Source: Bdellovibrionota bacterium (lineage in GTDB: Bacteria > Bdellovibrionota_C > UBA2361 > OMII01). From it: DNA of 38,035 bases. Positions 13,826 through 14,457 of the stretch are shown here, piece after piece. The notes beneath the pieces are model-generated. The model was not told the origin of the DNA, did no database searches, and saw nothing but the letters and a program-made list of their open reading frames with translations. The position numbers and the translations under genes are program-made. Each line of letters starts with the position of its first letter. The stretch's first letter is position 1. The stretch spans positions 1 to 38,035 of the forward strand of contig JBIIYC010000002.1 in the NCBI GenBank assembly GCA_044347025.1, written 5' to 3'.

Positions 13826-14347
13826 CAGGTGTATTGCCAGTCCGCTGCTCTACCGAATGGGTTCATCTTTATGGGGTGATTCAAGAGTATGAAGTGTGTG
13901 CCCAAGGCCGGAATCGAACCAGCGACCAGGCGTATTGCCAGTCCGCTGCTCTACCAAATGGGGTCATCTTTATGGGGTGATTCAAGAGTATGAAGTGTGT
14001 GCCCAAGGCCTGCATCGAACCAGCGACCAGGCGTATTGCCAGTCCGCTGCTCTACCAAATGGATGATTGAAGGAAAAAGGGTGTGCCCAAGGCCGGACTC
14101 GAATCAGCGACCAGGCGTATTGCCAGTCCGCTGCTCTACCAACTGAAGAATCGGGGATTGGATGATTGAAGGGAAAAAAGGTGTGCCCAAGGCCGGAATC
14201 GAAACAGCGACCGGGCGTATTGCCAGTCCGCTGCTCTACCAAATGGGGTCATCTTTATGGGGTGATTCAAGAGTATGAAGGGTGTGCCCAAGGCCTGCAT
14301 CGAACCAGCGACCAGGCGTATTGCCAGTCCGCTGCTCTACCAACTGA
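13826..14347 (-). repeat. Tandem array of six 5'-truncated tRNA-Phe-like pseudo-copies interleaved with recurring spacers
   Basis: The tRNA-homologous units are 13826..13857 (partial), 13899..13957, 14000..14058, 14084..14146, 14184..14242 and 14285..14347. On the minus strand each reads (TCAGT)TGGTAGAGCAGCGGACTGGCAATACGCCTGGTCGCTGGTTCGATTCCGGCCTTGGGCA, i.e. D-loop to 3' end, with no 5' acceptor strand. The spacers recur: one class is ggtcatctttatggggtgattcaagagtatgaag and another is agaatcggggattggatgattgaagggaaaagg. Confidence 0.85.
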
Positions 14348-14384
14348 AGAATCGGGGATTGGATGATTGAAGGGAAAAGGTGTG

Positions 14385-14457
14385 TGCCCAAGGCCGGAAT
14401 CGAACCAGCGACACGCGGATTTTCAGTCCGCTGCTCTACCAACTGAGCTACCTGGGC
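14385..14457 (-). tRNA. tRNA-Phe (anticodon GAA), CCA not encoded
   Basis: The minus strand reads GCCCAGG TA GCTC AGTTGGTA GAGC A GCGGA CTGAAAA TCCGC GTGTC GCTGG TTCGATT CCGGC CTTGGGC A. This folds by hand into a 73-nt cloverleaf with all four stems pairing, including one G-U pair in each of the acceptor and T stems. Confidence 0.93.

Follow-up and report, generated by a model that had tools for sequence, protein, structure and literature searches.

How does a bacterium come to carry, directly behind a presumably essential tRNA gene, a row of broken copies of that same gene? The question is raised by a 38,035-nt stretch of DNA from a Bdellovibrionota bacterium (NCBI GenBank assembly GCA_044347025.1, contig JBIIYC010000002.1, positions 1 to 38,035 of the forward strand; hereafter the window), in which a tRNA-Phe(GAA) gene on the minus strand is followed by six tandem partial copies, or units, separated by short spacers. 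We conclude, at a probability of about two in three, that this array is a young, lineage-specific hypervariable minisatellite, or variable-number tandem repeat (VNTR), which arose when part of the tRNA gene was duplicated in tandem together with its 3' trailer, and which was then reshaped by unequal homologous recombination. The parts of the array are listed below in 5' to 3' order along the minus strand, with spacer length counted from A73 to the first tRNA-matching base.

14485..14512, minus strand: putative promoter elements upstream of tRNA-Phe (TTGTTATT at 14512..14505; GTGATAACC at 14493..14485)
14457..14385, minus strand: tRNA-Phe(GAA), intact, 73 nt, CCA not encoded (ARAGORN; Rfam tRNA, 70.6 bits; minimum free energy of the cloverleaf, z = -2.2)
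14384..14348, minus strand: spacer A, 37 nt, the native tRNA 3' trailer, aligning with the tRNA-Phe 3' flanks of relatives L002, L073 and L008
14347..14285, minus strand: U1, 63 nt, tRNA positions 12-73, with the variant arm and the T-loop double lesion GATGCAGGC
14284..14243, minus strand: spacer B, first copy, 42 nt
14242..14184, minus strand: U2, 59 nt, positions 16-73, with the variant arm as CGCCCGG and G53T
14183..14147, minus strand: spacer A, second copy, 37 nt
14146..14084, minus strand: U3, 63 nt, with the variant arm, G53A and U59G
14083..14059, minus strand: spacer A', 25 nt, a 3'-shortened form of spacer A, also present in L083, L084, L086 and L087
14058..14000, minus strand: U4, 59 nt, with the variant arm and a T-loop lesion identical to that of U1
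13999..13958, minus strand: spacer B, second copy, 42 nt
13957..13899, minus strand: U5, 59 nt, with the variant arm and zero private changes
13898..13857, minus strand: spacer B, third copy, 42 nt
13856..13826, minus strand: U6, the terminal unit, 31 nt, D arm and variant anticodon arm only; the same truncated unit and junction occur in L082-L087
13810..13825, minus strand: unique junction TACGATAAGGGTCGAC, the array boundary in all strains

A preliminary description, made from the letters alone, had proposed that only the first member of the series is an intact tRNA-Phe(GAA), and ARAGORN and Rfam (the latter run to E 10 over 13600-14620) indeed returned no tRNA besides 14457..14385. The same description counted six copies running from the D loop to the 3' end. 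Five are of this kind: U1-U5 are 59-63 nt D-loop-to-3'-end segments of tRNA-Phe that extend to the discriminator base. The sixth, U6, is 31 nt long and cut at both ends; it stops after the variant anticodon arm (…ATACACCTG|TACGATAAGG; the junction can also be written …ATACACCTG|TACGATAAGGG) and has neither a T arm nor a 3' acceptor strand. Units that follow spacer A begin at tRNA position 12 (TCAGTTGG…), and those that follow B or A' begin at position 16. The spacers do fall into recurring classes, three in number (A, 37 nt; A', 25 nt; B, 42 nt), but measure 25-42 nt rather than the 18-35 nt first given. The order in the window is thus tRNA-A-U1-B-U2-A-U3-A'-U4-B-U5-B-U6, with head-to-tail periods of 84-101 nt; Tandem Repeats Finder reported a period of 100/101 nt over 13826..14446, with 2.3-4.7 copies and 75-96% matches. 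An A-U pair repeats at an offset of 201 and a U*-B-U block at an offset of 285, and the ~200-bp higher-order repeat suggested initially is not strict. The array period is not a multiple of 3, as expected for non-coding DNA.

Several other descriptions of these parts were considered and rejected. The sequence that follows …CCTG in U6 scored 14 when aligned with the T arm and trailer, against a shuffle mean of 13.2 (p = 0.40), which argues against U6 being a fully decayed tRNA copy. The spacer ends showed only CCC/CCCA matches to a 5' acceptor strand, which are not significant. A CRISPR array is excluded by spacers that recur in three classes, by units of 59-63 nt and by the lack of a Cas domain among the Pfam matches.

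All six units share a set of differences from the gene that lie in the anticodon arm and variable loop: the substitutions A35G, A36C, C40A and G44C, and an extra G that follows position 46. Elsewhere, at positions 12-34 and 47-73, the unit consensus equals the gene. The variant arm GGACTGGCAATACGCC, a 16-mer, occurs 6 times against 0.01 expected by chance. It had been described as one identical substitution block, and all six units do carry it, but not letter for letter, U2 reading CGCCCGG and U6 ACACCTGT. The T-loop double change GATGCAGGC is common to U1 and U4, as first noted, and G53 was altered twice independently (G53T in U2, G53A in U3). Read as a tRNA, the variant loop would be CUGGCAA, in which the Phe anticodon is gone and one stem pair is mismatched. 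The presence of the same five differences in all units of all strains bears out the proposal that a single diverged founder was later amplified. No ectopic donor of the variant arm was found within the window. An exact 25-mer of the arm had zero matches in the genome contig collection, a 20-mer had one chance match in a metagenome contig without a tRNA, and an 18-mer had 5 viral matches, all in one protein-coding family (…EADWQYA…) and not tRNA-like. Template switching at a quasi-palindrome was rejected upon inspection as the source of the clustered changes, since the new arm pairs only via G·T wobbles and not with perfect complementarity.

The spacers indicate what was duplicated along with the gene. 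Over its first ~28 nt, spacer A can be aligned with the native trailers 3' of tRNA-Phe in L002, L073 and L008; spacer B aligns more loosely with the native trailers of relatives. Spacer A being the native trailer, whole gene-plus-trailer segments must have been duplicated; because both spacers resemble native trailers, the repeat consists of part of the gene plus its own trailer and not of part of the gene plus foreign DNA. Spacer B was unmatched in the viral and genome collections, and BLAST searches of the array against phages and plasmids matched single ordinary tRNA genes only.

Comparison of strains shows that the array varies. The 280-aa protein encoded downstream has 98-100% identical copies in other public assemblies, and the nucleotide identity of conspecific contigs to the window is 95.5-100%. 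Contig L083 spans the locus and reads tRNA-A'-U-A-Ut (Ut, truncated terminal unit), with an intergenic region of 526 bp compared to 925 bp in the window. L086 also spans it and reads tRNA-B-U-A-U-A'-Ut, with spacer B directly 3' of the intact tRNA, and L084 begins inside the array and reads …A'-U-A'-U-A-Ut. The number of full units is thus 1 in L083, at least 2 in L084, 2 in L086 and 5 in the window, with flanks that are 95.5-98.4% identical, which agrees with the anticipated variation in copy number among relatives (1-5 full units). Every strain has the truncated terminal unit and the junction TACGATAAGGGTCGAC, and every non-gene unit has the variant arm. Sequence markers move between positions: GCGAAC lies in the terminal unit of L083 and L084 and in an internal full unit of L086, and ACACC lies in the terminal unit of the window, L082, L086 and L087. 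This shifting of markers between terminal and internal units indicates recombination by crossing-over between units. The population thus does carry the array, in differing copy numbers and orders. It has the properties by which a VNTR is recognized: a head-to-tail unit of at least 10 nt, copy number that is polymorphic within the species, non-coding sequence and dispensability in relatives. The intact tRNA-Phe of L086 (34-107) has the T-stem sequence GCAGG instead of GCTGG (T51A), a substitution that would disrupt a G·U pair and is found in none of the units; it reflects either a polymorphism or misassembly at the repeat boundary.

We asked how far the array itself could be an artefact, in whole or in its length and order in the window, created by a walk through the repeat graph of mixed strains. 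Most independent assemblies break at the array: five more contigs (a P0001 contig, L082, L085, L087 and L106) start or stop in it or at its edge, L106, which is 100% identical to the window, stops inside the tRNA, and the three spanning assemblies are mutually discordant. The units, both spacer classes and the terminal junction nevertheless recur in at least 7 independent assemblies (ENA, Logan and JGI projects), and a collapsed or looped path could not invent the private substitutions of the units. The repeat is therefore real, and uncertainty is limited to exactly how many units the window has and in what order, both of which rest on one short-read assembly; with two other assemblies spanning the array and at least 6 breaking in it, the structure is not the product of one assembly, and we regard an artefact as very improbable.

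The relatives place the array in time. The genomic setting is one of housekeeping genes (encoding a PBP1-like protein, alanine racemase, prephenate dehydratase, a KdsB-like cytidylyltransferase and others), and by its PBP gene the window is assigned to a clade of uncultured freshwater Bdellovibrionota. A lone tRNA-Phe comes after this PBP gene in 17 relatives, with the homologue of the 280-aa gene next in most of them; the arrangement CTCTTGT(C/T)ATT … TG(A/G)TA(A/C)C upstream of tRNA-Phe was present in 17 of the 17 relatives inspected. The nearest readable outgroup, L108-L110, has a tRNA leader nearly identical to that of the window and 143 nt of unique sequence between tRNA and gene, with no fragment. 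In these and other outgroups (L002, L014 and others), tRNA-Phe and the downstream gene lie ~140-220 nt apart without a fragment. Hence the array represents ~560 bp of inserted sequence that is confined to a single species-level lineage.

Other rearrangements at this site were seen in the clade. In L008 (9273-9421 of JBKCMS010000096.1, a contig end), the tRNA-Phe sequence from T loop to 3' end plus 28 nt of trailer is repeated 102 nt downstream; the repeat runs into the contig end and represents an independent tandem duplication or an unresolved repeat. In L016 (9282-9462), a 92-nt unit that begins 8 nt after tRNA-Phe occurs twice at 91% identity and holds a GC-rich palindrome (CTTAGGGGC…GCCCCTAAG), with related repeated trailer motifs in L012. 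These ~92-102-nt duplications in L008 and L016 suggest that the 3' edge of the tRNA-Phe gene may be prone to such events. In L007 (9479-13560), an insert of ~4 kb separates tRNA-Phe from the conserved downstream gene and encodes HAD-hydrolase, PfkB-kinase and BtpA-family proteins and one unknown protein, but no integrase. As this sole large insertion is metabolic and lacks an integrase, the idea that tRNA-Phe is an island hotspot in the clade was rejected.

These observations can be accommodated by the following series of events. Slippage or illegitimate recombination would have duplicated a ~100-bp segment from about tRNA position 12 to the end of the trailer. One non-functional copy would then have gained the five changes in the anticodon arm and variable loop and become the founder of later copies, and a deletion before the strains diverged would have cut the last copy after its anticodon arm, creating the junction …CCTG|TACGATAAGG. 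RecA-type unequal crossing-over and gene conversion would subsequently have expanded, contracted and reshuffled cassettes of unit plus spacer, with exchange through identical D-arm blocks (at least 19-23 nt) and T-arm/acceptor/trailer blocks (at least 29 nt). Selection on the presumably essential tRNA-Phe would keep the first copy intact: a crossover between gene and unit 5' of the anticodon would yield a dead tRNA and be purged, and the product would be functional only if the crossover fell 3' of the anticodon arm. L086, with spacer B right after the intact gene, looks like the product of just such a crossover in the T-arm/3' block. Alternatively, the full units could have originated from an illegitimate joint between an existing D-arm/variant-arm fragment and the T arm of the gene, with the extra G exactly at the joint. 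The array is probably carried passively, and it may be transcribed as a tRNA trailer.

Some findings do not fit comfortably with a minisatellite that simply decays and recombines. No units have a normal anticodon arm, although D-arm crossovers between the gene and the terminal fragment should produce them, and the origin therefore needs an extra deletion step or an illegitimate junction at the extra G. The five founder differences fall within 13 of 63 columns (P ~0.009, corrected for block position), and 5 of the 6 private changes of the window units fall in the T arm (P ~0.007-0.02). Neither clustering is predicted by plain neutral decay; edge gene conversion, a mutational bias of hairpins or selection are possible causes. 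Spacers A and B are only ~55% alike, but the units are at least 90% alike, a contrast that can be explained only if the units evolved in concert or a B-type trailer was imported. Finally, none of the lineages read is intermediate, as that of the P0007 contig (82% identity) would be.

Two further features lie downstream of the array.

13766..13736, minus strand: bipartite motif CACGCAACTT-N13-CCGAATAT, putative sigma-28-like promoter of the 280-aa gene
12839..13681, minus strand: gene for a 280-aa protein of unknown function without a Pfam family, found 3' of tRNA-Phe in 13 of 15 relatives checked

As the preliminary description had it, 145 nt separate the end of the array from the ATG at 13681. 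The motif recurs, as CGCAACT(T)-N~14-(C)CGA(A/T)(A/C), upstream of the 280-aa homologue in 11 of 14 relatives checked (L002, L004, L006, L007, L009, L010, L011, L012, L016, L054 and L073). Its -10 part resembles the FliA (sigma-28) consensus, GCCGATAA, which makes sigma-28 a candidate factor for this promoter, and a motility or alternative-sigma regulon may include the gene. With the motif situated between array and start codon, the array is upstream of the likely promoter of the gene and is not a conserved leader. There is no terminator-like site between the tRNA and the 280-aa gene, and read-through is therefore possible.

Folding gave no sign of a structured RNA. Single units, with or without spacers, had z scores of -0.5 to +0.2 relative to dinucleotide shuffles, compared to -2.2 for the intact tRNA. 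The sense strand of array plus downstream leader (z = +2.07) and the antisense strand of the array alone (z = +4.21) folded worse than shuffles. The T arm is preferentially mutated, twice at G53, which argues against a conserved T-arm fold. The structured leader and T-arm minihelices that had been considered at the outset therefore find no support: there is no folding excess over shuffles, the array is absent from orthologous upstream regions and the gene has a promoter-like motif of its own. The only non-tRNA Rfam match of the array, to YrlA (RF02553) at 14017-14134 on the minus strand, arises from T arm, spacer and D arm across a unit boundary and was judged to be noise (15.0 bits against a gathering score of 69, E = 6.7).

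Different accounts of the array have to be weighed against a VNTR. The units might be co-transcribed from the tRNA-Phe promoter as tRNA-mimic RNAs that would, for instance, sequester tRNA-binding enzymes or toxins in the manner of decoys or sponges, or supply tRNA-derived fragments, with an anticodon arm rewritten in such a way that PheRS, MiaA and the ribosome would not be engaged. Within the anticodon, PheRS recognizes mainly A35 and A36 as identity nucleotides, and A36 also belongs to the MiaA determinant. The founder changes replace both of these residues and cluster non-randomly, the private T-arm lesions with their two hits at G53 could reflect selection to disable rather than drift, and the geometry is suitable, as the units share a strand with the tRNA and the 280-aa gene, downstream of a conserved promoter-like element and with no terminator-like site between. 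We still think this explanation unlikely, because neither units nor array show a thermodynamic structure signal or match an Rfam family (the YrlA score being far below its threshold), the array is confined to one species-level lineage and missing in the nearest outgroups, and a copy number of 1-5 and T arms that mutate freely in the window are unlike a conserved RNA. A related proposal, highly unlikely in our judgment, is that the array is non-neutral and co-transcribed with tRNA-Phe, its units being tRNA mimics disarmed by selection that act as decoys at the RNA or DNA level. Replacement of A35/A36, weakening of the anticodon stem, repeated hits in the T arm and retention of the D arm and the 3' acceptor strand would then all be signs of disarming. 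As RNA, such units would be sponges for a tRNA-targeting nuclease, toxin or processing enzyme; as DNA, they would be spare attachment (att)-like targets that divert tRNA-Phe-directed integrases from what is possibly the sole functional gene; and copy number would be a rapidly tunable trait.

Integration is the customary explanation for tRNA fragments, and the units could be att-site scars of integrative elements that target tRNA-Phe, or the work of an integrase moving very small cassettes from one att-like site to another. Partial 3' copies in direct repeat behind an intact gene do have the orientation of classical attL/attR, and site-specific recombination could also yield a cassette order that varies by strain. 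The att identity block reportedly starts at a crossover site in the anticodon loop or T loop; here the fragments begin in the D loop, at position 12 or 16. In the classical picture, the intact gene is followed by kilobases of element DNA with an integrase and then by the 3' fragment and the native trailer (PMC9897764). At the present locus a native-like trailer stands directly after the intact gene, where element DNA is expected, and is repeated, the spacers are 25-42 nt and trailer-like, and the distal fragment has neither a 3' end nor the trailer that should follow it. No Pfam match to an integrase, transposase, recombinase or reverse transcriptase was found among the 29 ORFs (open reading frames) of at least 150 aa in the 38-kb window, as had been noted earlier for integrases; L007, the sole relative with an insertion at the locus, has its HAD, PfkB and BtpA genes there and no mobile element; and the variant arm and spacer B have no matches beyond chance in the viral, genome and metagenome collections. 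The opinion that these are not classical att scars is thus upheld, and we find an origin of this kind decidedly unlikely. A retro-copy origin of the founder is extremely improbable. In that event reverse transcription of the pre-tRNA and its trailer would have begun at the 3' end, halted in the D loop and put in wrong bases near modified ones. Each unit does combine a tRNA 3' part with transcript trailer and start in the D loop, and three of the five founder changes adjoin positions that are modified in E. coli tRNA-Phe (ms2i6A37, m7G46 and acp3U47), but C40A and G44C are not at known modified positions, the window has no reverse transcriptase, the copies are in tandem at the source locus, where DNA-level duplication suffices without RNA, and the scheme is purely speculative.

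Other observations concern genes of the window away from the array. In the 1090-aa PBP1-like protein (14607-17879, minus strand), a stretch of ~500 residues that separates the matches to transglycosylase (171-326) and transpeptidase (844-960) has no Pfam assignment. The best matches of this protein outside the clade are full-length and 45-48% identical and come from Duganella, Rugamonas and Janthinobacterium (Oxalobacteraceae), a similarity that hints at lateral transfer. Four minus-strand ORFs, 5876-8533 (885 aa), 8552-9712 (386 aa), 19176-20318 (380 aa) and 20670-22544 (624 aa), match no Pfam family at E values up to 0.001, and a gene of the PD-(D/E)XK nuclease family lies at 4924-5412, near Pfam-less ORFs.

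Among known systems, the array most resembles the intergenic VNTRs of bacteria, such as the 40-100-bp repeats of the MIRU (mycobacterial interspersed repetitive unit) type. As in those, intergenic units of ~84-101 bp lie head to tail, vary in number and order between strains and break short-read assemblies, and their expansion and contraction fit unequal recombination or slippage. The difference is that here the unit is a piece of the adjacent essential gene (tRNA-Phe 12/16-73) with its trailer, and the first repeat is the functional gene itself. A literature search found no bacterial precedent for a VNTR seeded by a tRNA, only att-scar and CRISPR accounts of tRNA fragments. Integrative elements leave partial tRNA-gene copies as attL/attR direct repeats; these share with the array an intact tRNA gene followed by 3' copies in direct orientation, but the array differs in its period of 100 bp rather than kilobases, its native-like spacers of 25-42 nt and its D-loop 5' boundary. 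Duplication of tRNA genes in animal mitochondria (tandem duplication and random loss) offers another parallel in its slippage-type duplication, decay of redundant copies and heterogeneous copy number; here, however, the setting is a bacterial chromosome, the tRNA is partial and the copies evolve in concert from one founder variant. The permuted T-arm-like and D-arm-like sequence across the unit boundary recalls YrlA, a bacterial Y RNA, but contains many non-canonical pairs and has no closing stem and no structure signal.

If the array is a VNTR, it is mechanistically ordinary but is a clean instance, found in nature, of a tandem repeat that began within an essential tRNA gene. Since the repeat series opens with the functional gene, recombination within the array puts that gene constantly at risk, and the locus would be a readable record of the interplay between selection and unequal crossover, in which crossovers are tolerated only 3' of the anticodon. 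For annotators, it means that tRNA fragments beside tRNA genes are not always integration scars. The array also explains why contigs of metagenome-assembled genomes break at tRNA-Phe in this lineage, and it is a possible strain-typing marker for this freshwater Bdellovibrionota population. Should the clustered disarming changes prove to have been selected, the units would represent a new class of tRNA-mimic decoys.

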